Origin: an uncultured archaeon
Lineage (GTDB): Archaea > Asgardarchaeota > Lokiarchaeia > Sigyniarchaeales > SOKP01
Direction: 5' to 3'
NCBI GenBank assembly: GCA_964525635.1
Contig: CAZGJX010000077.1
Location: forward strand, 1 to 21,607
Length of the DNA stretch: 21,607 bases
The position numbers and the translations under genes were made by a program. The first letter of the stretch is position 1; every line of letters begins with the position of its first letter. Below the pieces are notes generated by a model. That model searched no databases. It saw nothing but the letters and a program-made list of their open reading frames with translations, and was not told where the DNA came from. Below, piece after piece: positions 2,723 to 21,524 of this stretch.

Positions 2723-2750
2723 GAAATTTAGTTTTACAAATATAAAATAT

Positions 2751-3934: not shown

Positions 3935-4018
3935 TAATACTACTACGTTAGCAGCAGCTAGAGCTACAGCTAAATAATTAATAACTATATTTTCCATATT
4001 AGTATTATTTAAGGTCAT
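3932..4018 (-). CDS. Putative ilvE leader peptide MTLNNTNMENIVINYLAVALAAANVVVL (28 aa; alternative start 3997, 21 aa)
   Basis: ATG 4018 to TAA 3932, co-oriented with ilvE and ending 146 nt upstream of it. The last 18 codons contain 10 Ile/Leu/Val and 5 Ala, ending GTA GTA GTA TTA TAA. Confidence 0.75.
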   Translation of the reverse strand: MTLNNTNMENIVINYLAVALAAANVVVL

Positions 4019-4040
4019 TAAAAAAAGAAATTAATTTAAT

Positions 4041-4048
4041 TATTTAAG
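4041..4048 (-). promoter_or_regulatory. Candidate TATA box for the leader-ilvE transcript
   Basis: CTTAAATA ends about 22 nt upstream of leader ATG 4018, compatible with a near-leaderless start. The AT-rich background limits specificity. Confidence 0.35.
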
Positions 4049-4180
4049 ATTTATGTTCTTTTTGGTGTTTTTAGTGGGAAAATAAACCCAAATATATCAG
4101 AATTATTGAGAATATTACTATATGTAGATTTTGGTAAGTAACTTATTTTTTATATAAATTTATAAATTTAAAGAAATAAT

Positions 4181-4193
4181 GGGAATTTAAAAA
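4181..4193 (+). promoter_or_regulatory. Candidate BRE/TATA promoter of TPR-longin gene 1
   Basis: GGGAA-TTTAAAAA, with the TATA element starting 38 nt before ATG 4224. An equivalent element lies at the same spacing before the paralog. Confidence 0.5.
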
Positions 4194-4223
4194 TACTATT
4201 TATCTTATATATATTTAGCTAAT

Positions 4224-6416
4224 ATGCCTGATGATAAAAAAATCTCACAAGTAAATGAATATATATCTCATGGGAAATTTCAGTCTGCTTTAGAGACTAT
4301 AAAACTAATCGAAGAAGAGAGGAAATTATCTGATGATGAATCTTTAATAAAGAAATATGCAAGAATTTTTCTTTATCTTGATAAAGGTAAGTTTCAACTA
4401 GGAAGAACCCTTGCTGATGAAATGATTAAAGAATCAAGGAAACAAAATAATATTTTAAGGGAAATAGATGCATTCATTGGAAAGATTGAAAATACAATTT
4501 GTTTAGGAGTAATTGAAAAGTCCTTAGATTTAATTAAGAGAGGAAAGACAGTTTTAGAGAAATTTCAGGATAAAAATAGTCGAGAATTCATAAGAAGAAA
4601 AGCGTATTTAAAATTTTTAAAGGGACGTGTTTTTGCTGAGAAAACAGAAATGCATAAATCCATAAAACTAATCGAAGATAGTTATTATCTTAGGAAGGAA
4701 ATTAATGATAAATATGGAATGTTATGGTCTTTATTAAATTCTGGTTCATTAATAATGTCCATTGGAGAGTTCCAAAAAGGTAAAGAATACTTAGAAAAAA
4801 GTTTGAGAATAGCAGAAGAACTTAATTGTGAAGTTGGAATTGTATGGGCTTCAATCCATTTAGGAGGTATTGAATATCAACTTAGCAATTTAGATGTCGC
4901 AATGTCATATGCAGAAAGATGTCTTTTAATTACCGAAAAACAAGAATATAAACACTCAAGTTCTAGTTGTTATGATATTATTGGACATTGTCTAAATAAA
5001 AAAGGAAAGTTAGATAAAGCTCTATATTATTTCCAAAAAAGTTTGGTAAATAGAATAGAGTCAGGTTATAAATATTTAATCGCACAATCCTTTTATACAA
5101 TTGGAAATATTTATATTCAGAAAGGTCAACTTAAAGAAGCTTTAGATTATTTTAATCAAATATTAGAAATGCCAGAGGTTCAAGAAGACGACGTTTCTAA
5201 ACCAGCATATCTCACAACAATTGGAAGAATACATGGAGAACTCGGAGATTTCTCTACCGCAAAAAAATATTTAACACAAGCAATTGAACTATTAAAAAAT
5301 AAAGAAGGATATATATTTCATTATCAAAATTTTTCTTTATCAATAACGACAACTCTTCATGGTTTAATTGTTATTTTAGCAGAAGGTAAAGAATTTAATA
5401 TGGTTGATTTTTATTTAGAGGAATTATATAAATTAAGCCAAAAATATCCTGAAATAAAACAATTTGAACAATTATATCGATTAGATAAAGCAATTGTTTT
5501 AAAATCAAGTGATCGATTAATGGATAAGATGGAAGCTGGAGCAATTCTTAAAAGAATTACAGAAGAAGATATTATTGATTATGAAATAACTACCGAAGCA
5601 ATGACAAATTTATGTGAGGTGTTAATTAATGAATTAGAATTAACTGGCGATAACAAGATTTTTCATGAAATAGTATCACTTTCAGATATATTACTTGTAA
5701 TTGCACAACATCAAAATTTATTTGATTTATTAGCAAAAACATATTTCTTTAAGGCTAAAATTTCACTACTACAATTAAATATTAATAATGCAAGATTATT
5801 ATTAATAAAAGGTCAAAACACTGCATATAAACATGGATTAAAACGATTAGCAAATAAAATATCAAATGAACACGATTCTCTATTAGAAAATTTAGATAAA
5901 TGGGAAGAGAGGAAAAAGAATAAAATTTCTTTGCAAGAAAGAATAAATGAATCCAGAAATGAATTATTATTCTCTAAAATGGTTAGGTCTAGAATATCAG
6001 ATAGTATAATAGAAAGAGATACTTCAATTTATCTGGTAATTCTAAGTAGCGAAAAAGGAGATAGTATATATAGCAAAGCATTCGAAGAAATTAAAATTGA
6101 TGATAATCTTATAGCAGGTTTTATTTCAGCTATTAACATGTTTGGAAAAGAAGCATTTTCTTCTTCAGGATCGATTGATCGGATAAAACATGGAGAATAT
6201 CTAATAATTCTCCATTCTCATAAGGAGCTTATATTTGGATATGTGTTTAAGGGTCAATCCTATTCAGCAATAACTAAATTAGAAAATTTAATTGAAGAAT
6301 TATCAAACTCAGAGAAATTAATTAATTCTTTAAAATGGGCAATTAGAGGTTACACAGAAATTCCTGATGATATTCACAATCAGATAGATATGTTAGTTGA
6401 ACAAATTTTCTTATAA
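4224..6416 (+). CDS. Tetratricopeptide-repeat protein with C-terminal longin-like domain (paralog 1)
   Basis: Repeated TPR patterns (e.g. YDIIGHCLNKKGKLDKALYYFQKSL, FYTIGNIYIQKGQLKEALDYFNQIL). The C-terminus YLVILSSEKGDSIYSKAF...NLIAGFISAINMFGKEAF...IDRIKHGEYLIILH...FGYVF has the beta-beta-alpha-beta-beta-beta-alpha pattern of longin domains. Confidence 0.85.
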   Translation: MPDDKKISQVNEYISHGKFQSALETIKLIEEERKLSDDESLIKKYARIFLYLDKGKFQLGRTLADEMIKESRKQNNILREIDAFIGKIENTICLGVIEKSLDLIKRGKTVLEKFQDKNSREFIRRKAYLKFLKGRVFAEKTEMHKSIKLIEDSYYLRKEINDKYGMLWSLLNSGSLIMSIGEFQKGKEYLEKSLRIAEELNCEVGIVWASIHLGGIEYQLSNLDVAMSYAERCLLITEKQEYKHSSSSCYDIIGHCLNKKGKLDKALYYFQKSLVNRIESGYKYLIAQSFYTIGNIYIQKGQLKEALDYFNQILEMPEVQEDDVSKPAYLTTIGRIHGELGDFSTAKKYLTQAIELLKNKEGYIFHYQNFSLSITTTLHGLIVILAEGKEFNMVDFYLEELYKLSQKYPEIKQFEQLYRLDKAIVLKSSDRLMDKMEAGAILKRITEEDIIDYEITTEAMTNLCEVLINELELTGDNKIFHEIVSLSDILLVIAQHQNLFDLLAKTYFFKAKISLLQLNINNARLLLIKGQNTAYKHGLKRLANKISNEHDSLLENLDKWEERKKNKISLQERINESRNELLFSKMVRSRISDSIIERDTSIYLVILSSEKGDSIYSKAFEEIKIDDNLIAGFISAINMFGKEAFSSSGSIDRIKHGEYLIILHSHKELIFGYVFKGQSYSAITKLENLIEELSNSEKLINSLKWAIRGYTEIPDDIHNQIDMLVEQIFL

Positions 6417-6588
6417 TAAGCTTAGAAAGAATATCTTTAGAAAAAGAGATATGGTTAAATAGCTATTTCTGTAAAATATATTAGATTTAACATTTTTTAA
6501 AGATTAAATAATTGATTTTTTTTTTTCAAAAATATTAGAAAGTAAAGTTATTATAAATTTGAATTTATATAGTTTATAGAATAATAAA

Positions 6589-6601
6589 GTGAATTTATAA
6601 T
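6589..6601 (+). promoter_or_regulatory. Candidate BRE/TATA promoter of TPR-longin gene 2
   Basis: GTGAA-TTTATAAT, with the TATA element starting 37 nt before ATG 6631, mirroring the element at 4181-4193. Confidence 0.5.
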
Positions 6602-6630
6602 ATATTTTATGTTTTGTACGATACTAAAAA

Positions 6631-8832
6631 ATGTCAGAAAAACGAAATTTACAATTTAATGAATTCTTATCACAAGGAAAATATGTAAAAGCTTTGCAAC
6701 AACTAAATCTAATTAAGAAAAAAAGATCTTTATCTGAGGATGAAATTTTAGTCAAAAAATATATTCAAATTTTTATACATCTCGATAAAGGTGAATTTCA
6801 AAAAGGACGAAGTCTTGCTGAAGAATTGATCAAGGATTCGAAGAAAAAAAAGAATGTGATACGAGAGATTGACGGAATAATCGGGAAAACTGAAAATACT
6901 ATTTGTTTAGGATTATTTGATGAAGCAATGGAATCAATTAAAAAAGGAATTACTCTATTAAAAAAAATTGAAAATAAAGATAATAACCTTTACTTAGAAA
7001 GAAAAGCTTATTTAATATTTCTAAAGGGTCGTGCTTTTGCTGAAAAATTTAAGATGTTTGAGGCAATTAAATCATTTCAAAAAAGCTATGAACTTAGAAA
7101 ACAAGCTGATAATAAATATGGTATGTTATGGTCCTTATTGAATTGGGGATCTTTAGCAATGGGCGTAGGTAAATTTAGGGAAGGTGAAAATTACTTAGAA
7201 AAAAGCCTTAAAATTGCTGAAGAACTAGATTGTGAAGTTGGAATTATATGGAACTTAATTAATTTAGGAGGAATTGAATATCAACTTAGAAATTTAGATA
7301 AAGCAATATCATATGCAGAAAGATGTCTTTCAATTTCAGAACCGAGAGATTATAAACATTCAAGTTCAATGTGTTATGATATTATGGGTCATTGTCTATT
7401 TAAAAAAGGATTTCTTGATAAAGCATTAGTGTATTTTCAAAAAAGTCTAGAGAAGAGATTAGAAACAGGTTATAAAAATTTAATAGCACAGTCTTATTAT
7501 AGCATTGGAAATATATATACTCAGAAAGGTGAACTTAAAGATGGTTTAGCTTATTATGAAAAAATATTAAAAATGCCTGAAGTTAAAGAAGATAATGTTT
7601 CTAAACCTGCATATTTAACTACAATTGGAAAAATATATGGAGAACTAGGAGATTTTCATACCGCAAAAAAATATTTAATAGAAGCATTTGAACTATTAAA
7701 CAATAATGAACAATATCTATTTCATTATCTAAATTTTAGTGTATCAATAATAAAAACTCTTCATTATATAATAGTTCTTTTGGTTGAAAATAATGAATGT
7801 AAGGACATAGAGTATTACCTTGATGAATTATATAAATTAAGCCAAAAATATCCAGAAATGAGACAATATGAAATGATGTATCGTTTGGATAAAGCAATTG
7901 TATTAAAATCAAGCAGTCGATTAATGGATAAGATGAAAGCAGGAACAGTTCTTAAAAAAATCACCAAGGAAGATATTATTGATCATGAAATAACTATCGA
8001 AGCAATGACAAATTTATGTGAAGTATTAATAAATGAATTAGAATTAACAGGAGATACAACAATTATTCAAGAAATTGTAATTCTTTCTGATAAATTACTT
8101 GAAATTGCACAATCTCAATATTTTTATGATTTATTAGCAGAAACATACTTCTTTAAAGCAAAAATATCATTACTACAATTAGATATTAATAATACGCGAT
8201 TATTTTTAATGAAAGCTCAAAATACCGCAAATGACCATGGATTAAAACGACTAGCAAATAAAATATCAAATGAACATGACTCATTATTAGAAAACTTAAA
8301 TGATTTAGAAGAAAAAATTAAAAAAAATACACCTTTACAACAAAGAATAAATGAATCAAGAAATGATTTTTTATTCTCTAAAATGGTTAGGTCTAAAATA
8401 TCTGATCAAGTAAGAGTTATAGATACTCCAATATATCTAGTTATATTAAATAGTAACAAAGGAGATTGTATTTACAGTAAAGCATTCGAAGAAATTAAAA
8501 TTGATGAAAATCTTATAGCAGGTTTTATTTCAGCTATTAATATGTTTGGAAAAGAAGCATTCTCTTCTTCAGGATCTATTGATCGTATAAAGCACGGTGA
8601 ATATATGATAATTCTACATTCTTATAAAGAATTTATATTTGGATATGTGTTTAAAGGGCAATCCTATCCAGCCTTATCTAAATTAGAAAGTCTTATCGAA
8701 CAATTATCACAATCCAAGGAATTAATTAAGTCTTTAGATTATTCAATTCACAGTTATATGGAAATTTCTGATGAAACACAATTGGAAATAGATACTCTGA
8801 TCGACCAAATTTTTTCTTATAAAAGTAAATAG
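6631..8832 (+). CDS. Tetratricopeptide-repeat protein with C-terminal longin-like domain (paralog 2)
   Basis: Colinear along its full length with 4224..6416, with long identical blocks (VSKPAYLTTIG, EAMTNLCEVLINELELTGD, HGLKRLANKISNEHDSLLENL, NLIAGFISAINMFGKEAFSSSGSIDRIKHGEY). Confidence 0.85.
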   Translation: MSEKRNLQFNEFLSQGKYVKALQQLNLIKKKRSLSEDEILVKKYIQIFIHLDKGEFQKGRSLAEELIKDSKKKKNVIREIDGIIGKTENTICLGLFDEAMESIKKGITLLKKIENKDNNLYLERKAYLIFLKGRAFAEKFKMFEAIKSFQKSYELRKQADNKYGMLWSLLNWGSLAMGVGKFREGENYLEKSLKIAEELDCEVGIIWNLINLGGIEYQLRNLDKAISYAERCLSISEPRDYKHSSSMCYDIMGHCLFKKGFLDKALVYFQKSLEKRLETGYKNLIAQSYYSIGNIYTQKGELKDGLAYYEKILKMPEVKEDNVSKPAYLTTIGKIYGELGDFHTAKKYLIEAFELLNNNEQYLFHYLNFSVSIIKTLHYIIVLLVENNECKDIEYYLDELYKLSQKYPEMRQYEMMYRLDKAIVLKSSSRLMDKMKAGTVLKKITKEDIIDHEITIEAMTNLCEVLINELELTGDTTIIQEIVILSDKLLEIAQSQYFYDLLAETYFFKAKISLLQLDINNTRLFLMKAQNTANDHGLKRLANKISNEHDSLLENLNDLEEKIKKNTPLQQRINESRNDFLFSKMVRSKISDQVRVIDTPIYLVILNSNKGDCIYSKAFEEIKIDENLIAGFISAINMFGKEAFSSSGSIDRIKHGEYMIILHSYKEFIFGYVFKGQSYPALSKLESLIEQLSQSKELIKSLDYSIHSYMEISDETQLEIDTLIDQIFSYKSK

Positions 8833-8955
8833 AAATATATTTACAACAAACCTACATTATATAGATTGGGTGTTTTTACAATTTTATAGCAATTTTAATA
8901 ATTGAATATAGAATTAAATTGAATAGATCCTAAAATAAGGGTAGGTTTCAACTAT

Positions 8956-9213
8956 ATGGAAATTAAGTCCTGTTCTGATTATTTTCACATCTGTAATGAA
9001 TTCATCAAAAATAGTATTAGACAAGATGAAATGAGATTGAATGAAAGTTTTTGCAGGATAGAAAAAATATCAATTAATAAATTTAAAATACAATTTCAGT
9101 CAAATTTATTGAAAAAATCCTTTAAAAATTTGTTGAAAGTAATGTTTAATGAAATGGGTTTCGATGTGAATATTATTAAGAAATATAGAACTCTTGAAAT
9201 TTCAATAAGTTAA
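8956..9213 (+). CDS. Small hypothetical protein (85 aa)
   Basis: ATG-started ORF with no overlap, co-oriented with its neighbours, with an amphipathic helix/strand pattern. Confidence 0.6.
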   Translation: MEIKSCSDYFHICNEFIKNSIRQDEMRLNESFCRIEKISINKFKIQFQSNLLKKSFKNLLKVMFNEMGFDVNIIKKYRTLEISIS

Positions 9214-9553
9214 ATTTATCTATCCTTAATAAGAAGATTTTAATATTTTCAATAGTATTAATTAAAGTTCTTGTAAATTCTAAGTTTATAATTATGAGAT
9301 TATTATCATCAACAACTAATCATCTAATTATATTTTCAAAAACAATTATTTGTAGAGATACAATATAAATTTCAGTTTTTATTATAAATGTTTTTTAATA
9401 TTGAGAAATTAAGTGATATAAATTGAATATTTATACTAAGAATTTAGCATAGAAAATTAAAAATAAATAAATTTAATTACATATTATTATATTTATCCAA
9501 ATATATCATCAAAATCTTTTCGATTTATTATCCTTTTGTATAGAGCTTTACCA

Positions 9554-12310
9554 ATGAATAAAAATAAATTTAAGCAACATTTTATCATAATTTTTTTAAT
9601 TCTTTTTATATCAATTAATATTTATATCATACAGAGCAATAATATTTCAAGTGATATTGATAAGAATAATAGAGAAGCTTTACCCATTAACTTAAAGAGT
9701 TCTTTATATAATTATACAACAACAGAAGTAGTGTCATCTGAAAGTACTGAAGCTTCTCTGTGGCCTTCCATTGCTATAGATTCTTTAGGAAATATACATG
9801 TCGTATGGGCAGATAAAACGAATTATACAGGATGTAGTGAAATATCTGATGATTTTGATATATTTTATAAACAGTGGAATAATAGTTTAAAAGATTGGAC
9901 GAATACTGAGGTGGTCTCTACTGAGAGTACAAGTGATTCACTTTATCCTTCAATTGCCATTGATAGTTTAAATAATATTCATATAGCTTGGAATGATAAT
10001 ACAAATTATACTGGATGTAAAAGTGTAGGGGAAGATTATGATATATTTTATAAGGTGTGGAATAGTACTATAAAAAATTGGACGAATACTGAGGTGGTCT
10101 CTTCTGAAAGTACAAATAGTTCAGAAATCCCTTCAATTGCTATTGATAGTTTAAATAATATTCATATAGCTTGGGAAGATAAAACAAATTATACTGGATG
10201 TAAAAGTGTAGGGGAAGATTATGATATATTTTATAAACAGTGGAATAGTACTATAAAAGATTGGACGAATACAGAGGTAGTCTCTACTGAGAGTACTGAT
10301 TATTCTACTTGTCCTTCAATTGCTATAGATTCTTTAGGAAATATACATGTAGCATGGTATGACCAAACAAATTATTCTGCATGTAAAAGTGCAGGGGAAG
10401 ATTATGATATATTTTATAAACAGTGGAATAATACTATAAAAGATTGGACGAATACAGAGGTGGTCTCTACTGAAAGTTATAAAAATTCTTATAATCCCTC
10501 AATTACTACTAATGTGCTAGGAAATGTACATATAACTTGGGAAGATATAACGCCCCTAAATAGTTCTGGAGATGAATCTGATATATTTTATAAACAGTGG
10601 AATAATACTATAAAAGATTGGACGATTACTGAGGTAGTCTCTACTGAGAGTACTGATTATTCTACTTGTCCTTCAATTGCTATAGATTCTTTAGGAAATA
10701 TACATATAGCATGGTATGACCAAACAAATTATTCTGCATGTAAAAGTGCAGGGGAGAATTATGATATTTTTTATAAACAATGGAATAATACTATAAAAGA
10801 TTGGACATTGACAGATATAATATCTACTGAAAGTGATGCAGAATCATCTTGGCCTAAAATTGCTATAGATGGTTCAAATAATGTTCATGTAGTATGGAAT
10901 GATAGAACAGATTATAATGGATGTAAAAACTCAGTAAGTGATTTTTATGATATATTTTATAAATGTAGAATTACTCATAATATACCTTCTGTGAATTATC
11001 CAACTGATATTGAAACAACCAAGTTTGGGACCGAGACTATTGATTGGATCATCACTGATGATGTAGGAGCAGGAATGTATCGTGTTTTTATAAATGATAT
11101 AATTCTTGAGAGAGATTGGACTCCATGGGACAATAATACTATTATTCATATGCCAATTAATCGTAATTCTCCAGGAACATTTTACTATACAATTGAATAT
11201 TATGATACCTTTAAAGTATATGGAATTAATGACACTGTGACAGTTGTAATAGAAGATGGTAATCCGATAATTAATCATCCTATTGATCATAAAATAGAAA
11301 AAGGTCAATCATTAGTAATTGAATGGATTATTACTGATGATTTTGGTGACGGGTTTTACAGAATCTTTTTAAATGATATTTCTAGCGGCTGGGATACCTG
11401 GGAAAGTGATGCAACAATACAATATTCTTTAAAGACTTCTGTTATTGGTGTGTTTAATATTACTATTCAATATCAAACCTCTACAGGACAAATAGGATAT
11501 GATACAGTAATGGTTGAAATTACTCCTTCAGGAATACAAATATTTTTTGATTTCTTGCCATATCTTATTGTTATAATCAGTTCTATATTAGTAATAGCAT
11601 CTTCTGTTATTATACTAAAAAGAAGAAAACATAAACAAATAGTAATGTGGAAAGAAAAGACGAAAATATTTTCTGATATTTTAAATATTGACTTAATCTT
11701 AATTATTCATAAAGAAACTGGTTCTGCAATAGTCTCACATAATTTTAGTGAACAAACTATGGATGGAGATCTTATAGGTGGATTTCTACAAGCTATGACT
11801 TCTTTTAAATATGAAATTAAAAAATTCGATACAACTCAAACTTCGAAAGGCTCAACTTTATTGGATTATGAACATTATAAAATCCTTATTAAGGATGGGG
11901 AGTTTATTCGCGTTGCTATAATATTAAATTCAGATCCATCAAATCTCCTAGAAAATGCATTTTATGGCTTTATTGAAGAATTTGAAACAAGATTTAATAC
12001 CGAATTAAAACAATTTCATGGTAAAATCACAACATTTCAAAATTCCATAGATTTGATCAACAAATATTTCAATATCTCTCTAATTTATCCTCACTGTACT
12101 AGTAAAAAGGCATCGTTAAAAGAATTGAACTCCTTTCAAGAATATATAATAAAAATGGCAAAGAACTTAGAAAGTAAAACAGGAATGTTTCATATGAGTC
12201 AATTGATAAATTATATAATAGCTGATAAACCAAATGAACTAAAAGAGAAAATAATCGCGAATATTATTGATTTAAGACAACTTGGATTTCTAGAATTAGC
12301 TAATCCTTAA
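9554..12310 (+). CDS. Membrane-anchored surface protein: N-terminal signal/anchor, 7-repeat beta-propeller, two Ig-like domains, TM helix, cytoplasmic longin-like domain plus helical (wHTH-like) tail
   Basis: ATG 9554 is preferred over TTG 9536. Hydrophobic HFIIIFLILFISINIYII; seven PSIAIDSLxNIHxAW...DIFYK repeats; two P..P.D...I.WIITDD.G.G.YR.F.ND units; TM FLPYLIVIISSILVIASSVIIL followed by KRRKHK; LILIIHKETGSAIVS...DGDLIGGFLQAMTSF longin-like segment; many N-x-S/T sequons in the ectodomain. Confidence 0.85.
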   Translation: MNKNKFKQHFIIIFLILFISINIYIIQSNNISSDIDKNNREALPINLKSSLYNYTTTEVVSSESTEASLWPSIAIDSLGNIHVVWADKTNYTGCSEISDDFDIFYKQWNNSLKDWTNTEVVSTESTSDSLYPSIAIDSLNNIHIAWNDNTNYTGCKSVGEDYDIFYKVWNSTIKNWTNTEVVSSESTNSSEIPSIAIDSLNNIHIAWEDKTNYTGCKSVGEDYDIFYKQWNSTIKDWTNTEVVSTESTDYSTCPSIAIDSLGNIHVAWYDQTNYSACKSAGEDYDIFYKQWNNTIKDWTNTEVVSTESYKNSYNPSITTNVLGNVHITWEDITPLNSSGDESDIFYKQWNNTIKDWTITEVVSTESTDYSTCPSIAIDSLGNIHIAWYDQTNYSACKSAGENYDIFYKQWNNTIKDWTLTDIISTESDAESSWPKIAIDGSNNVHVVWNDRTDYNGCKNSVSDFYDIFYKCRITHNIPSVNYPTDIETTKFGTETIDWIITDDVGAGMYRVFINDIILERDWTPWDNNTIIHMPINRNSPGTFYYTIEYYDTFKVYGINDTVTVVIEDGNPIINHPIDHKIEKGQSLVIEWIITDDFGDGFYRIFLNDISSGWDTWESDATIQYSLKTSVIGVFNITIQYQTSTGQIGYDTVMVEITPSGIQIFFDFLPYLIVIISSILVIASSVIILKRRKHKQIVMWKEKTKIFSDILNIDLILIIHKETGSAIVSHNFSEQTMDGDLIGGFLQAMTSFKYEIKKFDTTQTSKGSTLLDYEHYKILIKDGEFIRVAIILNSDPSNLLENAFYGFIEEFETRFNTELKQFHGKITTFQNSIDLINKYFNISLIYPHCTSKKASLKELNSFQEYIIKMAKNLESKTGMFHMSQLINYIIADKPNELKEKIIANIIDLRQLGFLELANP
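9722..10966 (+). repeat. Seven intragenic tandem repeats of 183 nt (61 aa; unit 5 is 174 nt, unit 7 partial)
   Basis: Units start at 9722, 9905, 10088, 10271, 10454, 10628 and 10811. Units 4 and 6, and units 2 and 3, are near-identical at DNA level. Confidence 0.95.
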
Positions 12311-12388: not shown

Positions 12389-15300
12389 TTACCAATAAAT
12401 CTCTTTTAAAGTTTCATGGTATTCATTTAGAGATTTTACTGATATTTCTCTTGTTCTTACTTTTTCTATTGCATTTACAAGTGCTTCTGCTAACTGTAAA
12501 TCGATTATAACGGGTATATTATAATCAACTGCCATTCTTCTAATTTGATATTCATCTTCTATTATTTGACGGAATTTCTTTTCTATGGTAGTTGGTAAAG
12601 GTATGTTAATGACCATATTAATATTTCCAGTTTGAAGACATTCTTTGATATTAGGTTCCATTCCACGTTCACTAACTTTATACAATCTAACAGCTGGAAT
12701 TCCATTTTTTTTAAGAGATTCTGCTGTATGTTTTGTGGAAAAAATCGTAAATCCTAAATTTATTAATTTTTTAGCAATTGGTATGATTTGTTCTTTTAAT
12801 TTATCACCACCAACAGAGATTAATACATTACCACCTTCAATAGGAATAAATTGTTCTGCGGCTTCAAGAGCTTTCATTAAAGCGCTTGGTAGATCTTCAC
12901 TAATTACAGCAACTTCACCAGTACTATTCATTTCTACTGAGAGGATTGGGTCTGCATTATCCAATCTCATAAAAGAAAACATAGGAGATTTAACAGCAAC
13001 AAAATCACCATAGGGTAAATTTAATAATCTTTCGGGTATTTTTTGTCCCATAACAACTTCTGCAGCTAATTTCATTAAATTAATACCACGCGTTTTAGAT
13101 ACATAAGGCATACTTCTACTAGAACGTAAATTACATTCTATAACAAATACTTCTCCATTTTTAACTAAATATTGAATATTAAATGGTCCTTGAATCTTCA
13201 ATGCTAAAGCTATATCTTTTGTATATTTTTCAATTGTCTGAATAACTTCATTTGAAACGGTTTGAGGTGGAATTGACATTGTAGCATCACCAGAATGAAC
13301 ACCTGCATTTTCAATATGTTCTACTACTGCACCAATAAGTACTTTTTCACCATCACATATTCCATCACATTCTAATTCTCGTGAATCTGTGAAGAATTTT
13401 GTTATTACTACAGGATACTCTTGGGAGACTGCTGCTGCTAAATCCAATGTATCTATCAATGTTTTTTCATTATAAGAAACTCTCATAGCCGCACCACTTA
13501 ACACATAAGAAGGTCTTACAAGAACAGGATAACCAACTTTATTGGCAAAATGAAGTGCTTCATCCTTTTTTATTAATATACTCCATTCAGGTTGTTTTAT
13601 ATTCAATTGATCTAATAAATTACTAAATTTTGAGCGATCTTCTGCCATATCAACCCGTGAACCATGAGTACCTAAAATATTTATACCAGCTTTACGATAA
13701 AATTCGGAATATTTAGAAAATTTAGCAGCAAGATTTTGAGCTATTTGTCCACCTGCATTTAAAACAATTCCATAAGATTTTTCGAGCTCACAAATATCTA
13801 AAACTCTTTCCCCAGATAATTCTTCGAAATATAATCTATCAACTAAATCATAATCTGTTGAAACCGTTTCAGGATTATAATTAATCATTATTGCTTTGTC
13901 TATTCCTAATTTTTGAAGCCCCCATAAACAATTAACACTTCCCCAATCAAATTCACAACTACTTCCAATTCTATAAGTTCCACATCCTAAAACAATAACT
14001 TTTTTTAAATTATCCCTTTCTTCTTGTTTATAGTCAATATCATGTTTATTTCCCCAATAGGTTAAATATAAATATTGCCTTTTAGGGACGCATTGTCCTG
14101 CTAATGTATCAATCTGTTTTACATATGGTAAAATATTATATCTTTTACGTAATCTCCTTATAGTAGGAGTGTCAACACCAATTATTTTTGCTATTTGCCC
14201 ATCTGAAAATCCATATCTTTTAGCTTTTCTGAATAAATATTGTTTTTCATCATCATTTGATTTTAGAAAATCTAATTCTTTAATATCTTTTTCAATATCT
14301 ATTATATTTTTTAATTTATAAAGAAACCACTTGTCTATTTTTGATCTTTCATAAATTACATCAATAGAGATTCCTCGCTTAATTGCCTCTCCTATTCTCA
14401 AGAATCTTAAATCTGTAGGATTTCTTAATTCATATTTTAATTCATTAATATCTTCTATAGGTTCAAGGTTATTTCCAACAAAACCTTTTAAACCAATATC
14501 TAACATACGGATAGCTTTCTGACATACTTCTTCAAAGCTTCGCCCAATACTCATACATTCCCCAACGCCTTTCATTTGAGGGCCTATACGTCGATCTACT
14601 CTTTCAAATTTTGTTAAATCCCACCGAGGATATTTCAGAACCATATAATCAGTTGCAGGTTCAAAATTAGCGGTAGTTTTAAGTGTAATTTGGTTTAATA
14701 ACTCAGGTAATTTATATCCAATTGCAATTTTAGCGGCTATATAAGCTAATGGATATCCAGTTGCTTTTGAAGCCAAAGCTGATGATCTTGATAATCTTGC
14801 GTTTATTTCAATAGCTCTAAATTTTTTGCTAAAAGGATCTAATGCCCATTGTATATTACATTCTCCACATACACCTACACCTTTAGTTGCTCGGATTGAA
14901 GCAGATCTTAACATTTGAAGTTCTTCATCAGTTAGAGTTTGAGCAGGAGCTACCACTATAGAATCACCAGTATGTATACCACATGGATCTACATTCTCCA
15001 TACTACAATTAATAAAACAATTATCATCCGCATCTCTAAGTATTTCAAATTCAATTTCCTTCCAACCCCAAACACTTTCCTCAATTAAAATCTGGTTAAT
15101 ACGTGATTGTGCCAATCCTCGTTTAGCTAATCTTTCAAATTGATCCCAATTATTAATAAAAGCAGAACCTCTACCCCCTAACACATATCCAACTCTAAGC
15201 ATTATTGGAAATCCGATTTCTTTAGCAGCTTTTACAGCATCTTTATAGTTATTAACGGCAACACTCTTACAAACAGGGCAATTTGCTTCATTCATAGCTT

Positions 15301-15700
15301 TAACAAATAATTCTCTATCCTCTGTAGCTTCAATTGCTTTAATAGGTGTTCCGCATACCTTAACGTTATATTTTTCCAGAATTCCTGCTTCATATAGCTC
15401 TACACCTACATTAAGTCCTGTTTGTCCTCCGAAGGCTAGACAAATTCCATCAGGTCGTTCTTTTTTAATAATTTCCTCAACATATTTAATTGTGATAGGC
15501 TCTAAATATACCCTGTAGGACATTTGAGGATCTGTTTGGATTGTTGCTATATTAGGATTAATTAAAATCGTCTTAATTCCTTCCTCATTCAATGCTTTTA
15601 AAACTTGGCTTCCACTGTAATCAAATTCTCCAGCTTGACCTATTCTTACAGCACCAGATCCTAAAATTACTACTTTTTTTAAAGTTTTGTCCAATGGCAT
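12389..15700 (-). CDS. carB: Carbamoyl-phosphate synthase large subunit, divergent copy
   Basis: GSGAVRIGQAGEFDYSGSQ, LGGRGS, GIHTGDS, IEINARLSRSSALASKATGYP, RPSYVLSGAAM, AGVHSGDA, VIECNLRSSRS, C-terminal MGS-like domain. Confidence 0.96.
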   Translation of the reverse strand: MPLDKTLKKVVILGSGAVRIGQAGEFDYSGSQVLKALNEEGIKTILINPNIATIQTDPQMSYRVYLEPITIKYVEEIIKKERPDGICLAFGGQTGLNVGVELYEAGILEKYNVKVCGTPIKAIEATEDRELFVKAMNEANCPVCKSVAVNNYKDAVKAAKEIGFPIMLRVGYVLGGRGSAFINNWDQFERLAKRGLAQSRINQILIEESVWGWKEIEFEILRDADDNCFINCSMENVDPCGIHTGDSIVVAPAQTLTDEELQMLRSASIRATKGVGVCGECNIQWALDPFSKKFRAIEINARLSRSSALASKATGYPLAYIAAKIAIGYKLPELLNQITLKTTANFEPATDYMVLKYPRWDLTKFERVDRRIGPQMKGVGECMSIGRSFEEVCQKAIRMLDIGLKGFVGNNLEPIEDINELKYELRNPTDLRFLRIGEAIKRGISIDVIYERSKIDKWFLYKLKNIIDIEKDIKELDFLKSNDDEKQYLFRKAKRYGFSDGQIAKIIGVDTPTIRRLRKRYNILPYVKQIDTLAGQCVPKRQYLYLTYWGNKHDIDYKQEERDNLKKVIVLGCGTYRIGSSCEFDWGSVNCLWGLQKLGIDKAIMINYNPETVSTDYDLVDRLYFEELSGERVLDICELEKSYGIVLNAGGQIAQNLAAKFSKYSEFYRKAGINILGTHGSRVDMAEDRSKFSNLLDQLNIKQPEWSILIKKDEALHFANKVGYPVLVRPSYVLSGAAMRVSYNEKTLIDTLDLAAAVSQEYPVVITKFFTDSRELECDGICDGEKVLIGAVVEHIENAGVHSGDATMSIPPQTVSNEVIQTIEKYTKDIALALKIQGPFNIQYLVKNGEVFVIECNLRSSRSMPYVSKTRGINLMKLAAEVVMGQKIPERLLNLPYGDFVAVKSPMFSFMRLDNADPILSVEMNSTGEVAVISEDLPSALMKALEAAEQFIPIEGGNVLISVGGDKLKEQIIPIAKKLINLGFTIFSTKHTAESLKKNGIPAVRLYKVSERGMEPNIKECLQTGNINMVINIPLPTTIEKKFRQIIEDEYQIRRMAVDYNIPVIIDLQLAEALVNAIEKVRTREISVKSLNEYHETLKEIYW

Positions 15701-15704
15701 CGAG

Positions 15705-16838
15705 TTATACCTCCATTAATTTTATAAATTTGTTAAAAATGATATCTCTCATATCTAATGCTCCAGGAGAGGCATCTGGATTGAATGCTACAGAAAATAT
15801 TGGTTTAGATTCATGATAAAGCCCCTCATTGGTTTTATCATCTTTATCATGATATAATTCCTTAAAACCATTCTTTTCAAAATTTTTTAAACAATAACCA
15901 TGATTCTGAAAAGTAATATAGCAATGATTGCTAGCATTATCTACAGTTGTTCGACCACCTCTATGCTCAGAAATCATTCTACAGCATTCACCCCCAGCAG
16001 CAAGTCCTATAATCATATTTCCTAAGCCAATTCCAATTGTTGGGATATTATTATTGATTAATTCTTTGACAAACTGTATTTGTTCTATTAATAAATTGGG
16101 ATTCCCTGGACCATTTGATAATAATACTCCATTAAGTTCTAATTCTTTTAAATTTCTATAGGGATACGTATGGGGAATCAAAATTACGTTAAATCCTTTA
16201 TTTAATAAAATCCTTAAAATATTATTTTTTATTCCAAGATCTAAGACTGCTACTGTTCCCTTTGGGTCAGAAATCATAAATTTTTTAATCTCTTTAGTAG
16301 AAACTCTTGAAATTATCTCCTTATTAAGAGGATCCTCAATAACTTTCACATCTTCTTTTAATTGTTCAATATTAGGTTTTTGACCAATATCAAAGACTTG
16401 AACCAATCCTAATTGAGATCCTTTTTCAACAATCCTTTGAGTTAACATTCTAGTATCAATCCATTGAATGCCAGGGATATCTTCTTGAATAAGCCAATCC
16501 TCTAATGACATTATACTTTCATAATGACTTGGTTTTTTACAATATTCATTAACTATAATTCCCTTTAATTTGATGGAATCTGATTCAAAATGTTTAGGAA
16601 TTCCATATTTATCTATTATCTTATCTGGTACACCATAGTTTCCTATTAGAGGATACGTGAAAATGATAATTTGATCTTTATATGTACTATCTGTAAGTAC
16701 TTCTATATAACCTGATCCCGGAACTGTTGAAAATGTTATTTCACCAGTGACTTTTTTAGGAGCTCCTATTCCTATACCTTCAAAATAAGTCCCATCTTGT
16801 AACATCAAGATAGCTGGCTTCTCAGTTTTGTAAATCAT
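15705..16838 (-). CDS. carA: Carbamoyl-phosphate synthase small subunit, glutaminase-inactive variant
   Basis: CarA motifs (TYPLIGNYG, IDTRMLT, LSNGPGNP, QNHGY), but GIGLGNM replaces GICLGxQ and FNPD replaces FHPE. Confidence 0.93.
   Translation of the reverse strand: MIYKTEKPAILMLQDGTYFEGIGIGAPKKVTGEITFSTVPGSGYIEVLTDSTYKDQIIIFTYPLIGNYGVPDKIIDKYGIPKHFESDSIKLKGIIVNEYCKKPSHYESIMSLEDWLIQEDIPGIQWIDTRMLTQRIVEKGSQLGLVQVFDIGQKPNIEQLKEDVKVIEDPLNKEIISRVSTKEIKKFMISDPKGTVAVLDLGIKNNILRILLNKGFNVILIPHTYPYRNLKELELNGVLLSNGPGNPNLLIEQIQFVKELINNNIPTIGIGLGNMIIGLAAGGECCRMISEHRGGRTTVDNASNHCYITFQNHGYCLKNFEKNGFKELYHDKDDKTNEGLYHESKPIFSVAFNPDASPGALDMRDIIFNKFIKLMEV
15709..15714 (-). promoter_or_regulatory. Shine-Dalgarno GGAGGT for carB, embedded in the end of carA
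   Basis: ATGGAGGTATAACTCGATG, 8 nt before ATG 15700. The equivalent GGAGA at 20400-20396 precedes the other carB. Confidence 0.65.
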
Positions 16839-17060
16839 GGTAATTATTATTTTCTTTTTTTTTTTATATAATAAATATAGCTAATTAAACTATTTTATTT
16901 AATATAATAATCATTCAATAATATTATTAAAATGAAAGAAGTAAATGAAGAGTTACCTCTGTTTAAAAATAAAAAATTTTCTTTTTAGTAAATAATTCAT
17001 CAATTATTCTCATTTAACTAATCCAGTTTTAAACTTTAATTAGAATTATTTGATAATACT

Positions 17061-17066
17061 AAAAAA
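17061..17066 (-). terminator. Oligo-T terminator candidate after the canonical carAB operon
   Basis: TAA-CCTCAGGA-TTTTTT directly after the carB stop at 17075. Confidence 0.4.
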
Positions 17067-17074
17067 TCCTGAGG

Positions 17075-20000
17075 TTACCAATATATTTCTTCTAAAGTTT
17101 CATGGTATTCATTAAGTGATTTAATTGATGGTTCCTTTCTTCTAATATTTTCGATAGCATTAATTAAAGCTTTTGCAAATTCTAAATTTATAATTACAGG
17201 AATATTATAATCCACAGCTATTCGTCTAATTTTATACTCATCTTCAATAATAGTCCTAAATTTTTCTTTAATTGTTGTAGCTTGTGGAATATTAACAACT
17301 AAATCTATTGCTGCATTTTGAAGACATCCAATAATATTAGGCTCTTGTCCATATTCATGAACTTTATAAAGTCGAACAGCATATATTCCATTTTCTCTGA
17401 GTACAGCTGCAGTATCTTCAGTTGCGAAGATAGTAAATCCTAACTCTTTTAATTTCAATGCTAAAGGTATAACTTGTTTTTTTAATTCTTCCCCACCAAC
17501 AGAAATAAGAACATTTCCACCCGATAAAGGAATTTTCTGCTCTGTAGCTTCTAAGGCTTTAACTAATGCATCAGAGAAATCATCTCCAATACATGCAACC
17601 TCTCCTGTGGAAGCCATTTCTACACCTAAGACAGGATCAGCTTTATCAAGCCTAGCGAATGAGAACATTGGAGTTTTTACAGATACATAATTCCCATAAG
17701 GTAAATTTAAAAGCTTTTCAGAAATCTTTTTTCCTAAAAATACTTCAGCAGCAAGTCTCATTAAATTAATACCCCTTGTCTTTGAGACATAGGGCATACT
17801 TCGACTTGATCTTAAATTACATTCTATTACAAAGACTTCTTTATCTTTTATTAAGTATTGAACATTAAAAGGACCTCTAATTTTTAATGCTAAAGCTATT
17901 TCTTTTGTATATTTCTCAATTATTTGTATGACTTCATTTGATATTGTTTGTGGGGGAATAACCATATTCGCATCTCCACTATGAATTCCAGCATTTTCAA
18001 TATGCTCAATAATTGCTCCAATAAAAACATCGGTTCCATCACAAACACCATCCGCTTCGATTTCTCTTGCATTAGTAAAGAATTTGGTAATTACAACAGG
18101 GTATTGAGTTGAGATAGAAGCTGCTAGATCAAGTGTATCTTTCAATGTCTTTTCATCATATGAAACTCTCATTGCAGCTCCACTTAGTACATATGAAGGT
18201 CTAACTAATACGGGATAACTTACTTTTTCTGCAAATTTTAGTGCGTCTTTTTCAGTAGTTAATGTAGCCCATTGAGGTTGTCTTATATTTAATTGATCTA
18301 ATAAATAACTAAACTTGGATCGGTCCTCTGCTATATCTATACGGCTTCCATGAGTACCCAATATATTAATATTTGTCTTCCTAAAAAATTCATTATATTT
18401 TGAAAATTTAGCGGCGAGGTTTTGGGCAATTTGTCCACCTACTGATACAACTACACCCTCAGCTTTTTCGAGTTCACATATGTCCAATACTCTTTCTCCA
18501 GAGAGTTCCTCGAAGTAGAGCTTATCACAAATATCATAATCTGTACTTAACGTCTCAGGATTATAATTTATCATAATAGCTTGATCAACACCTAAATTCT
18601 TTAATCCCCATAAACAATTAACTGATCCCCAATCAAATTCTACAGAAGCACCTATACGATATGTCCCAGAACCTAAAACAATGAATTTTCTTAGGTTTTC
18701 TTGATTTTCACGCTGGAAATCAATATCATGTTCAGAAGCGGCATATGTTAAATATAAATAATTAGTTATAGCAGGCCATTCTGCTGCTAGAGTATCAATC
18801 CTTTTTACAAAAGGTTTAATTTGATACTTTCTTTTTAATATTCTTCTGGTTGTTATAGCATCTATACTAATTATTTTAGCAATTTGTCCATCAGAAAATC
18901 CAAATCTTTTTGCCCTTTCGAATAAGTAATGTTTAATATCGTCATCTTCCTCTAAAAAGTTAATTTTTGATAATTGTTCTTCAATTTCAATAATATTATT
19001 AATTTTATATAGAAACCATTTATCAACTCGAGAGAGACGATATATTTCATCGATAGAAATCCCCCTTTTTATTGCTTCAACAATTCTAAATACTCTTAAA
19101 TCAGTAGGATTTTTAAGTTGATATTTTAATTCATTTAAATCTTCAATTGGATCTAAATTGTTAGCAACGACACCTTTCATTCCTATATCAAGCATTCTTA
19201 TTGCTTTTTGAAGAACTTCTTCAAAAGTCCTTCCTATTGCCATTACTTCTCCAACACTTTTCATTTGACTACTAATATGTCTATCAACACGTTGGAATTT
19301 TGTCATATCCCATCTTGGGATTTTTAAAACAAGATAATCCAGTGCTGGTTCAAAGCAAGCAGTTGTTATTCCAGTAATTTTATTTTTCAATTCTGGTAAA
19401 TTATAACCTATTGCTAATTTTGCCGCAATATATGCTAGTGGATACCCAGTTGCTTTAGAAGCTAAAGCAGATGATCTTGATAATCTTGCATTTACTTCAA
19501 TTACTCGAAATTCTTTAGATCTAGGATCCAGAGCATATTGTATATTACACTCTCCAATAATACCTAAATTTCGAATAACCCTAATTGAGGCAGAACGAAG
19601 CATATGATATTCTTCATTTGTTAGAGTTTGAGAAGGAGCAACAACTATACTTTCACCAGTATGAATTCCACAAGGATCAAAATTCTCCATATTACAATTT
19701 ATAAAACAATTGTCGGCAGCATCTCGAACAACTTCATATTCAATTTCTTTCCAACCCCAAACACTTTCCTCAATTAATATTTGATGAATTCTTGATTGAG
19801 CCAATCCTCGTCGTGCCATTTTTTCAAATTCATTAATATTATTTGCTATTCCAGATCCTCTTCCGCCTAAAGTGTAAGCTACTCGTATCATTAAAGGAAA
19901 TCCAAATTCATTAGCCGCCTTAATAGCTTCTTTATATGATGTGACCGCTTTACTTCTGCATACAGGAGCCTTAGAAGCGTCCATTGCTTGAACAAATAAA

Positions 20001-20389
20001 TTCCTATCTTCAGTAGCCTGAATTGCTTCAATTGGAGTCCCCAAAACACGAATATTATATTTATCTAAAATGCCTTCTTCAGCAAGTTCTACTCCAACAT
20101 TAAGTGCAGTTTGACCTCCAAATGCTAATAAAATTCCATCTGGTCGTTCCTTCGCAATAATTTTTTCAACATACTTCACATTAATAGGTAAAAGATATAC
20201 TCTATCGGATAATTCGGGATCAGTTTGAATTGTAGCGATATTTGGATTAATAAGAATTGTTTCAATACCTTCTTCCTTTAAGGCTTTAAGAACTTGAGAG
20301 CCAGAATAATCAAATTCTCCTGCTTGACCAATTCGAATACCTCCTGAACCCAAAACTAAAGCTTTTTTAATTGTCTTATCTAAGGGCAT
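17075..20389 (-). CDS. carB: Carbamoyl-phosphate synthase large subunit, canonical copy (1104 aa)
   Basis: Same motifs as the other copy, plus the canonical IDTLAAEWP and TTACFEPALDY. Start reassigned from 20422 to ATG 20389 (MPLDKT, matching the paralog; SD upstream; removes the overlap with carA). Confidence 0.96.
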   Translation of the reverse strand: MPLDKTIKKALVLGSGGIRIGQAGEFDYSGSQVLKALKEEGIETILINPNIATIQTDPELSDRVYLLPINVKYVEKIIAKERPDGILLAFGGQTALNVGVELAEEGILDKYNIRVLGTPIEAIQATEDRNLFVQAMDASKAPVCRSKAVTSYKEAIKAANEFGFPLMIRVAYTLGGRGSGIANNINEFEKMARRGLAQSRIHQILIEESVWGWKEIEYEVVRDAADNCFINCNMENFDPCGIHTGESIVVAPSQTLTNEEYHMLRSASIRVIRNLGIIGECNIQYALDPRSKEFRVIEVNARLSRSSALASKATGYPLAYIAAKLAIGYNLPELKNKITGITTACFEPALDYLVLKIPRWDMTKFQRVDRHISSQMKSVGEVMAIGRTFEEVLQKAIRMLDIGMKGVVANNLDPIEDLNELKYQLKNPTDLRVFRIVEAIKRGISIDEIYRLSRVDKWFLYKINNIIEIEEQLSKINFLEEDDDIKHYLFERAKRFGFSDGQIAKIISIDAITTRRILKRKYQIKPFVKRIDTLAAEWPAITNYLYLTYAASEHDIDFQRENQENLRKFIVLGSGTYRIGASVEFDWGSVNCLWGLKNLGVDQAIMINYNPETLSTDYDICDKLYFEELSGERVLDICELEKAEGVVVSVGGQIAQNLAAKFSKYNEFFRKTNINILGTHGSRIDIAEDRSKFSYLLDQLNIRQPQWATLTTEKDALKFAEKVSYPVLVRPSYVLSGAAMRVSYDEKTLKDTLDLAASISTQYPVVITKFFTNAREIEADGVCDGTDVFIGAIIEHIENAGIHSGDANMVIPPQTISNEVIQIIEKYTKEIALALKIRGPFNVQYLIKDKEVFVIECNLRSSRSMPYVSKTRGINLMRLAAEVFLGKKISEKLLNLPYGNYVSVKTPMFSFARLDKADPVLGVEMASTGEVACIGDDFSDALVKALEATEQKIPLSGGNVLISVGGEELKKQVIPLALKLKELGFTIFATEDTAAVLRENGIYAVRLYKVHEYGQEPNIIGCLQNAAIDLVVNIPQATTIKEKFRTIIEDEYKIRRIAVDYNIPVIINLEFAKALINAIENIRRKEPSIKSLNEYHETLEEIYW

Positions 20390-20390: not shown

Positions 20391-21524
20391 TTAAATCTCC
20401 ATAAGTTGTATAAATTTATCAAATAAATATATAGAATCTATTGGACCAGGGGCTGCCTCTGGATGGAATTGAACTGCAAAAATAGGTTTTTTTTCATGAA
20501 TTATCCCTTCATTTGAATTATCATCTATATTTTTAAGGAATTCTTTAAATCCCCCTTTTTCAAAATCTTTGACACAGAAACCATGATTTTGAGGTGTAAT
20601 ATAACATTTATGAGTATCTATATTAATAACTGTTTTATTTCCCCCTCTATGTCCATATTTTAATTTATAAGACATACCTCCAGCTGCTAAGCCAATTATT
20701 TGATTTCCTAAACAAATTCCGAAAGTTGGAATGCTATTTTCAATTAATTGTTTGCAAACATTAATTGCATTTGTATATACTTTAGGATCTCCCGGACCAT
20801 TGGAAATAAATACCCCATTAGGATTCAAATCCATTATTTGGTTATAGGTATAATTATAAGGTACAAGAATTACCTCTAAATTTCTATTTAAAAAATTTCT
20901 TAAAATGTTATACTTTACACCTAAATCCAGAATAACTACTCTTCCTCTTGGATTAGAAGGAATATATTTTTTTATTCCTTTTGTTGAGACTTCACTAGCT
21001 AAATATCGAAGGTTAGGATCTTCAGCTTCCTTAACAATTTTTCTTAATTCTTCAATATTAGGTTTTTCACCTGAATTATAAACAGCTAACAATCCAACTT
21101 GAACTCCTTCTTCTCTTAAGATTTTCGTTATAGCTCGAGTATCTATCCATTCAATCCCAGGAATATCCTGTTCCAATAAAAATTCATCTAATGTTTTAAC
21201 ACTTTCATAATGACTGGGGTGTTTACAACATTCATTAACAACAAATCCACTTACTTTAATAGAATCAGATTCAAAATATTTAATAAGACCAAATTCATCT
21301 TTTTCCCATGGAGGAACTCCATAATTTCCAACAAGAGGATGAGTCATTACTACAATTTGTCCTTGATAGGATGGATCCGTTAAAGTTTCATTATAACCAG
21401 CACCTGTTATGGTATTAAAAACAAGTTCACCAGTAACAACTTTAGATGCTCCAAAACCAATTCCTTGGAAATATCTTCCATCTTGAAGCATTAATATAGC
21501 GGGTTTTTCGTTTTTATATTGCAT
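20391..21524 (-). CDS. carA: Carbamoyl-phosphate synthase small (glutaminase) subunit, intact
   Basis: LTDPSYQGQI, ISNGPGDP, FGIC(271)LGNQ, GHRGGN, QNHGF, QFH(354)PE(356): complete Cys-His-Glu triad. Confidence 0.96.
   Translation of the reverse strand: MQYKNEKPAILMLQDGRYFQGIGFGASKVVTGELVFNTITGAGYNETLTDPSYQGQIVVMTHPLVGNYGVPPWEKDEFGLIKYFESDSIKVSGFVVNECCKHPSHYESVKTLDEFLLEQDIPGIEWIDTRAITKILREEGVQVGLLAVYNSGEKPNIEELRKIVKEAEDPNLRYLASEVSTKGIKKYIPSNPRGRVVILDLGVKYNILRNFLNRNLEVILVPYNYTYNQIMDLNPNGVFISNGPGDPKVYTNAINVCKQLIENSIPTFGICLGNQIIGLAAGGMSYKLKYGHRGGNKTVINIDTHKCYITPQNHGFCVKDFEKGGFKEFLKNIDDNSNEGIIHEKKPIFAVQFHPEAAPGPIDSIYLFDKFIQLMEI

Follow-up and report, generated by a model that had tools for sequence, protein, structure and literature searches.

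A conserved glutaminase-dead CarA and its dedicated CarB in one Asgard family: a probable ammonia-dependent carbamoyl phosphate synthetase

We analysed a stretch of 21,607 nucleotides (hereafter the window; contig CAZGJX010000077.1, GenBank assembly GCA_964525635.1) from an uncultured Asgard archaeon of the Sigyniarchaeales, whose genome of 4.45 Mb is scored 100% complete. The window carries two adjacent sets of genes for the small (CarA) and large (CarB) subunits of carbamoyl phosphate synthetase (CPS), and the second small subunit, CarA2, has lost its glutaminase site. Sequence comparison indicates that this dead CarA and its partner, CarB2, are kept as a pair under purifying selection in this archaeon and its relatives. 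We propose that carA2-carB2 probably encodes a CPS that depends on ammonia and whose small subunit, a pseudo-glutaminase, serves as a scaffold; a duplication of the operon within a single Asgard family would have given rise to it, and many genomes would since have lost it. A first-pass annotation of the window had put forward an ammonia-utilising CPS with a structural subunit, and we consider such an enzyme likely because CarB2 is intact, the small subunit is without its nucleophile, and published results on the Escherichia coli enzyme agree with it.

The four genes are arranged head to tail, all of them on the minus strand, with the start of carB2 4 nt past the stop codon of carA2:

carA1, 20391-21524, minus strand: intact CarA, triad Cys271-His354-Glu356, motifs GICLGNQ and FHPE
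carB1, 17075-20389, minus strand: large subunit of the glutamine-dependent CPS, likely start ATG at 20389 (MPLDK...)
spacer between carB1 and carA2, 16839-17074, minus strand: 236 nt, AT-rich
carA2, 15705-16838, minus strand: glutaminase-dead CarA paralog, uninterrupted frame of 377 aa
carB2, 12389-15700, minus strand: intact large subunit paired with carA2, 1103 aa

Loss of the glutaminase site and conservation of CarA2

CarA2 has the domain order of a CPS small subunit, with an N-terminal small-chain domain (CPSase_sm_chain, PF00988, E 6.5e-40) followed by a class-I glutamine amidotransferase (GATase) fold (PF00117, E 1.1e-32), and CarA1 has the same two domains. CarA2 was aligned to CarA1, to which it is 56% identical, and to E. 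coli CarA (residue numbers marked Ec). The Cys-His-Glu triad of an active class-I GATase is absent: the nucleophile Cys (Ec C269) is Gly271 (codon GGC, 16026-16028), the His (Ec H353) is Asn353 (codon AAT, 15780-15782) and the Glu (Ec E355) is Asp355 (codon 15774-15776). Met stands at the position of Ec Gln273, and the motifs TDSTY and EHRGGR replace TDPSY and GHRGGN. These substitutions, their coordinates and the full-length frame had been listed in the first-pass annotation, and all proved correct on translation and alignment. Among active CarA representatives C269, H353, E355 and S47 are invariant (109 of 109) and Q273 is present in 105 of 109; the substitutions in CarA2 therefore far exceed chance. 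The codons of four further altered residues are:

Phe310, 15909-15911, minus strand
Ala360, 15759-15761, minus strand
Glu291, 15966-15968, minus strand
Pro40, 16719-16721, minus strand

A search of 5.8 billion proteins gave 98 clusters that are 54-84% identical to CarA2 and, together with CarA2 itself (P0001), make up 99 sequences. Every one of the 99 has Gly at C269 and Asn at H353, and all 98 clusters carry the motifs G-I/V/F-G-L/M/K-G and F-N-P-E/D; the next 22 matches are live orthologues, all with Cys and His (GICLGNQ, FHPE). Several other residues are nearly fixed in the dead clade (Ec S35 to Pro in 97/99, D244 to Asn in 93/99, A309 to Phe in 88/99 and P360 to Ala in 80/99, as well as G289 to Glu), and Gly241, Gly243, Asn311 and His312 of the old pocket are kept in CarA2. 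The positions of Ec Gln273 (Met, Asn, Val or Ile), Ser47 (Thr or Ala) and Gly313 vary, the first two being glutamine-binding residues. Because the Gln273 position drifts while other residues are near-fixed, the glutamine site is disused, while constraint still acts on the protein and on a number of the new residues. Position Ec309 is Ser, Thr or Ala in 105 of the 109 active enzymes and non-small in 8 of 29 other triad-less lineages; the Phe of CarA2 suggests a plug in the former tunnel mouth, like that formed by Gln318 in CPS1 (PMC4655335). No Cys or Ser that could serve as a replacement nucleophile is peculiar to the dead clade as a conserved residue; C100, C306 and C316 occur in the live copy too. 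An AlphaFold2 (AF2) model of CarA2 (predicted local distance difference test, pLDDT, of 90; confident except at residues 358-360) has a CarA-like fold, with a template modelling (TM) score of 0.90 to E. coli CarA (1A9X_B, 1JDB). The database label 'glutamine-hydrolyzing' on genes of the dead clade is probably wrong.

In a FastTree phylogeny of 169 CarA sequences, the root of which is not established within Asgard, the dead CarAs form one clade (support 99) that is sister to the live Asgard CarA clade (support 98). CarB2, in a tree made likewise with FastTree, is also one clade (support 100), sister to CarB1, and the same genomes group alike in the CarB1 and CarB2 clades (L007 with L009, L008 with L011, L012 and L027 basal). 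The simplest history would be a single tandem duplication of carAB, loss of the triad in copy 2, and vertical descent with losses.

The ratio of nonsynonymous to synonymous substitution rates (dN/dS), obtained by comparison with the same-genus genome G158 and approximate since dS is 0.9-1.4, is 0.133 for carA2, 0.091 for carA1, 0.105 for carB2 and 0.074 for carB1; for the GATase-like half only, it is 0.154 in carA2 vs 0.089 in carA1. Over the 28 genome pairs formed by eight genomes that hold both gene pairs, mean identity is 0.61 for the dead CarA and 0.77 for the live one, 0.82 for CarB2 and 0.81 for CarB1. By these measures selection on the dead small subunit is somewhat relaxed, and on CarB2 it is not.

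An intact CarB2 and its pairing with the dead CarA

CarB2 is 74% identical to CarB1, and both contain the two ATP-grasp halves, the oligomerisation domain and the MGS-like allosteric domain in Pfam, so that CarB2, which has the catalytic residues in both halves, fits the features of a CPS large subunit. For a residue-level comparison we used the CarB positions that the E. coli literature assigns to the ATP sites, the tunnels and the effector site. At each of the 29 ATP-site residues checked CarB2 keeps the E. coli residue or matches CarB1, and it is identical to CarB1 at all checked positions of the ammonia tunnel (R265 and the C232/A251/A314 gate among them), of the carbamate tunnel and of the nucleotide-effector site; most of the CarB2 positions checked are the same in E. 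coli too. The gate residues are confirmed by published work (PMC4655335). The partner CarB had been called intact in the first-pass annotation, and for both ATP-grasp halves and every catalytic and tunnel residue checked this holds.

The genes themselves keep together. Each of the 18 Asgard loci has a carB2 after the dead carA on the same strand, with a gap of 0-6 nt or an overlap in 17 of them and of 55 nt in L009, and the carB2 products are 1084-1119 aa long where complete. The order carA1-carB1-spacer-carA2-carB2 recurs in ten loci, and in L027 the live and dead pairs are convergent.

CarB1 and CarB2 are fixed differently at 38 positions, 27 of them in residues 1-406 and 6 in residues 528-547, which in E. 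coli are the regions touching the small subunit (PMC6245113); the allosteric domain has zero such differences. The best of three controls scored 0.00 and the predicted complex of CarB2 (residues 1-560) with CarA2 0.91, a mark that 58 of 80 solved complexes attain, as do 2 of 110 mismatched pairs; contacts in this complex agree to at least 94% between runs and partner pLDDT is at least 91. As E. coli CPS and CPS1 are already solved structurally, this pass may reflect likeness to them only. Positions fixed differently between the paralogs are enriched at the predicted interface, on one chain 9 of 34 (3.5 expected, p = 0.005) and on the other 8 of 20 (3.0 expected, p = 0.004). One predicted contact is altered on both sides, from Lys134 of the live CarA with a Glu of CarB1 to Gln134 of CarA2 with Gln536 of CarB2, and in another CarB2 Leu261 (Tyr in CarB1) lies beside the Gly359-Ala360 loop of CarA2 (Pro360 in CarA1). 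In the model, then, the interface substitutions point to insulation of the dead pair from the live pair, not to mixing. Within CarB2 residues 529-541, all CarB2 sequences read IDTLAGQCVP and CarB1 reads IDTLAAEWP; the changes (Ec R528Q, A534G, E535Q, T538P and T540R) fall partly within the predicted CarA2 contact.

Across 400 genomes of the phylum we scanned the DNA for the pattern K-P-x-F-x-V-x-F-N-P-D/E-x-x-P-G, which is strict and misses divergent forms. The dead gene was found in 19 genomes, all from the window's own family (18 of 134 others, in 8 of 13 genera), and none of the 265 genomes outside the family matched the strict pattern. Twelve carriers have both live and dead pairs. In four genomes of one genus (92-99% complete) the only CarA is the dead one and the only CarB is of the B2 type, and five sister genomes (100% complete) have a single, live CarA. 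The dead-only genomes each have 2-3 genes of the aspartate/ornithine transcarbamoylase (ATCase/OTCase) family. Pathway assignment from gene neighbourhood gave nothing useful: no arginine (arg) or pyrimidine (pyr) genes stand beside the dead pair in the Asgard loci examined, the only such gene being a pyrG beside the live pair in L027.

Ammonia as nitrogen source and the alternatives

The case for ammonia draws on what is known of the E. coli enzyme. Its large subunit reportedly forms carbamoyl phosphate from NH3 in vivo, as described by Rubino et al. in 1987 (cited in PMC6245113), and tunnel-blocked variants are said, following Huang and Raushel in 2000 (cited in PMC4655335), to lose glutamine use and keep ammonia use. 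Cys269 and His353 of E. coli CarA are essential for glutamine hydrolysis (PMC6245113). Because of these three points, and because CarB2 is intact, we favour an ammonia-dependent enzyme: CarA2-CarB2 would be a self-contained second CPS, unable to hydrolyse glutamine, which builds its carbamoyl phosphate out of bicarbonate, free ammonia and 2 ATP. An ancestral carAB operon would have duplicated in tandem inside one Asgard family, and in copy 2 the Cys and His of the triad would have been lost by single-base changes (TGY to GGY and CAY to AAY). Remodelling of the pocket and tunnel mouth would have accompanied this (Ser47 to Thr, Gln273 freed, the small residue at Ec309 to Phe, Pro360 to Ala and Gly289 to Glu), the dead subunit persisting as a scaffold docked to a co-evolved CarB2 at the latter's carboxyphosphate and oligomerisation domains, in a role that may be structural or allosteric. 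Ammonia might enter at the softened Pro360/Tyr261 wall or at the new Glu291, both of them candidates only. In ammonium-rich, energy-poor sediment such an enzyme might avoid the ATP cost of glutamine synthetase for each nitrogen, and might make carbamoyl phosphate independent of the glutamine pool.

Several observations weigh against this proposal. The pair is patchy (19/400 genomes, and 4/54 in one genus), and one carrier, L014 (= G175), has an internally deleted dead carA; because of this distribution and this deleted copy, the pair must be dispensable in many lineages. The dead-only genomes carry a carbamate kinase gene (arcC) adjoining one OTCase-family transcarbamoylase gene, which makes another source of carbamoyl phosphate possible there, so that being the sole ATP-grasp CPS does not prove function; the argument that the dead pair must be the sole source of carbamoyl phosphate is weakened accordingly. 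The dead CarA changes faster than the live one, as the mean identities above show. Finally, the strict fixation of Pro40, Asn246, Glu291, Phe310 and Asn353 may mean that CarA2 is more than a passive scaffold.

The deleted copy in L014:6502-7421 (= G175:C62) is broken into one part covering residues 1-171 and another covering 275-377, some 100 codons being gone, and may be either real decay in this 72%-complete metagenome-assembled genome (MAG) or an assembly fault. The arcC genes score over the NCBIfam cut-off and lie about 2 kb from the OTCase-family gene (G182:C14:7034-10370; the same in G177, G225, G228 and G184), an arrangement that suggests that this Asgard genus gains ATP by citrulline/arginine catabolism or has another source of carbamoyl phosphate.

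The residues just listed are the starting point of a different account, in which CarA2 has gained a ligand-binding or sensing role, its pocket binding a metabolite or capturing NH4+ (through Glu291 and Asn246) and thereby gating or activating CarB2; on this view the small subunit of an ammonia-using CPS would be a new kind of regulator and not a passive scaffold. Gly271, Asn353, Pro40, Asn246, Glu291, Arg296 and Phe310 (88/99) are invariant or nearly so across the 99 sequences, the GATase-like domain has a dN/dS of 0.15, and the four old-pocket residues named above are kept. We nevertheless think it unlikely: the Gln273, Ser47 and Gly313 positions vary as those of a disused pocket would, many of the fixed changes lie at or beside the predicted CarB2 interface, which by itself could account for their conservation, and the gene neighbourhood offers no candidate ligand. 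Nitrogen might instead come from another donor or partner, for instance a separate amidohydrolase docking on the dead subunit or a mixed oligomer with CarA1-CarB1. The live and dead pairs are indeed adjacent in most carriers (convergent in L027), E. coli CPS forms higher oligomers through its oligomerisation domain (PMC6245113), and fixed changes of CarB2 cluster at residues 528-541; however, four near-complete genomes hold the dead pair without a live one, no conserved third gene accompanies the pair, and the interface substitutions indicate insulation from the live pair, which leaves this account improbable.

That CarB2 carries out some other ATP-grasp carboxylation or phosphorylation, and not carbamoyl phosphate synthesis, would suit a pair that is accessory, patchy and never beside arg or pyr genes in Asgard loci, but we regard it as very improbable given a protein 74% identical to CarB1, with identical residues at the checked positions of both ATP sites and both tunnels, which is moreover the only CarB in four genomes that keep ATCase/OTCase-family genes. 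An incipient pseudogene still open by chance has hardly any probability left. The internally deleted copy in one relative and the faster evolution of the dead copy speak for it; against it stand a full-length frame that about 99 clusters, the most distant 54% identical, retain along with invariant replacement residues, the dN/dS of 0.13 and the confident AF2 model with a CarA-like fold, and we rejected it on the fixation in those clusters and the dN/dS value. The first-pass annotation had likewise argued that the gene is not decaying, naming substitutions private to this genome and a dN/dS near 1 as signs to the contrary; clearly neither was found, the same substitutions recurring across the clusters, CarB2 forming a distinct conserved clade and four genomes having only this pair.

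A wider form of the ammonia-dependent proposal is conceivable, though we consider it less likely than not. Ammonia-only use by complete CarA-CarB enzymes might be no speciality of animals but a recurrent prokaryotic adaptation, which arose separately in one Asgard family, in Bacillota pyr operons and in other lineages. The pseudo-glutaminase of the Asgard enzyme would then have been re-purposed and not be idle. Its plugged pocket (Phe at Ec309) would work in concert with a thinner tunnel wall, in which the change of Pro360 to Ala in CarA2 faces that of Tyr261 to Leu in CarB2, where the E. coli enzyme was artificially perforated, and the thinned wall with Glu291 could form a side entrance or an NH4+ capture site feeding the conserved tunnel gate.

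Known systems, other triad-less CarAs and neighbouring genes

Among ATP-grasp CPSs, types II and III are classed as users of glutamine and the animal type I as ammonia-only (PMC6022934), and all types but CPS1 are said to use glutamine (PMC4655335). Like mitochondrial, ammonia-specific animal CPS I (PDB 5DOU, 5DOT), the archaeal enzyme keeps a glutaminase-type domain without the nucleophile Cys, has altered residues in the former tunnel and pocket, and keeps the ammonia-tunnel gate of the large subunit (Ec C232/A251/A314; PMC4655335). CPS I, however, is a single chain of 1500 aa with Ser at the nucleophile position and the His retained, and it needs N-acetylglutamate, whereas the archaeal enzyme is made of two polypeptides, has Gly and Asn, and has an allosteric domain unchanged from that of its glutamine-dependent paralog. 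Since no position of that domain is fixed differently between CarB1 and CarB2, nothing suggests N-acetylglutamate control of CarB2. The pair does not belong to the metazoan CPS I/III lineage with its fused chain, as its genes are separate and the dead clade stands by the live Asgard CarA; CPS I-like sequences (Ser-His-Glu) fall in the eukaryote-type group of the CarA tree, apart from the dead clade. In matches to PDB both Asgard CarAs are closer to human CPS1 (296 and 263 bits) than to E. coli CarA (235 and 168 bits). A specific kinship of CarA2 with CPS I was rejected, the preference for CPS1 being a lineage trait common to the live copy and the tree separating the two. Thus the parallel with CPS I drawn in the first-pass annotation extends to the presumed nitrogen source and no further: the two chains, the Gly in place of Ser and the unchanged allosteric domain set the pair apart, and its origin is independent, inside an Asgard clade.

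E. coli CarAB (CPS II) shares the heterodimer architecture, the fold (TM 0.90) and the CarB catalytic residues. CarA2 naturally mimics laboratory variants of that enzyme that lose glutamine use and spare ammonia use (C269S, PDB 1C30; tunnel-blocked G359F, 1M6V), but in the archaea the loss occurred in nature and is fixed, goes together with remodelling at Ec 35, 47, 244, 289, 309, 351 and 360, and has a partner CarB that co-evolved. The paired arginine and pyrimidine CPSs of Bacillota and fungi likewise amount to two complete carAB-type enzymes per genome produced by duplication; their small subunits are both described as glutamine-hydrolysing (PMC6022934), while in the Asgard genomes one is dead and the pair has neither a pathway-specific gene context nor allosteric-site divergence. 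Glutaminase-free ammonia routes exist in other archaea, in the small CPS of Methanobrevibacter smithii and the carbamate-kinase-like CPS of Pyrococcus (PMC6022934), but these have no CarA-type subunit or another fold, whereas the Asgard enzyme keeps the full CarA-CarB with a pseudo-glutaminase.

Our literature search, which was incomplete and so is no proof of novelty, found no report of a prokaryotic triad-less CarA. If the ammonia-dependent proposal is right, a conserved archaeal pseudo-glutaminase CPS would add a prokaryotic ammonia-only type, toward which the triad-less CarAs of bacterial pyr operons point too. It would offer a natural, two-subunit and easily expressed model of how ammonia reaches the carboxyphosphate site, which is unsettled for CPS I, and a clean example of paralog insulation through interface co-evolution. 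It would also hint that energy-limited sediment archaea near the eukaryotic stem spare the ATP of glutamine synthetase when ammonium is plentiful.

Among the 136 full-length CarA representatives nearest the query, a sample biased toward sequences resembling the dead CarA2, the triad is absent in 27, the nucleophile position most often, by a wide margin, being occupied by Gly, and well-supported branches force at least 13 independent triad changes. For the dead clade itself the search of representatives yielded fragments only, and its matches served as outgroups and as a source of other triad-less lineages. In two independent bacterial cases the triad-less CarA is encoded within pyrB-pyrC-carA-carB-pyrK-pyrD(-pyrF-pyrE) operons. 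In an uncultured Sporosarcina MAG it is the only CarA, and the cultured Holdemanella hominis L34 has a dead CarA besides a live one. The bacterial loci are:

L028:8001-9098; L029:6115-7218; L067:3001-4101; L120; L119: bacterial triad-less CarAs, with triads Gly-Asn-Glu, Gly-Tyr-Glu and Gly-Tyr-Gln

A Helarchaeota contig (L030:10001-14498) encodes a triad-less CarA (Gly-Asn-Glu) that is more diverged, at 41% identity, and is paired with a CarB of its own; on the tree this CarA falls outside the clade formed by the live and dead sequences, and the strict DNA pattern would miss such a form. Upstream of it lie a cluster of ubiquitin, E1 (ThiF), E2 (UQ_con) and JAB genes and a small GTPase. A rotifer CPS-like protein (P0147, 909 aa, named Rotaria socialis at NCBI) has Gly-Asn-Asp at the triad and groups with eukaryote-type multidomain CPSs; it may be a further independent triad loss in animals, outside vertebrate CPS I.

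In the window, the mechanical open reading frame of carB1 extends beyond the likely ATG to a TTG at 20422. The spacer at 16839-17074 has T-runs past the carB1 stop and TATA-like stretches 20-40 nt ahead of the carA2 ATG, and is possibly a terminator plus a separate carA2 promoter; other tandem loci have a spacer of 58-1657 nt at the same place, between the live and the dead pair. The remaining neighbours, in 1-12310, are unrelated to CPS: a class-IV aminotransferase (2751-3785), two tetratricopeptide repeat (TPR) proteins of about 730 aa each (4224-8832) and a 924-aa beta-propeller-repeat protein (9536-12310).

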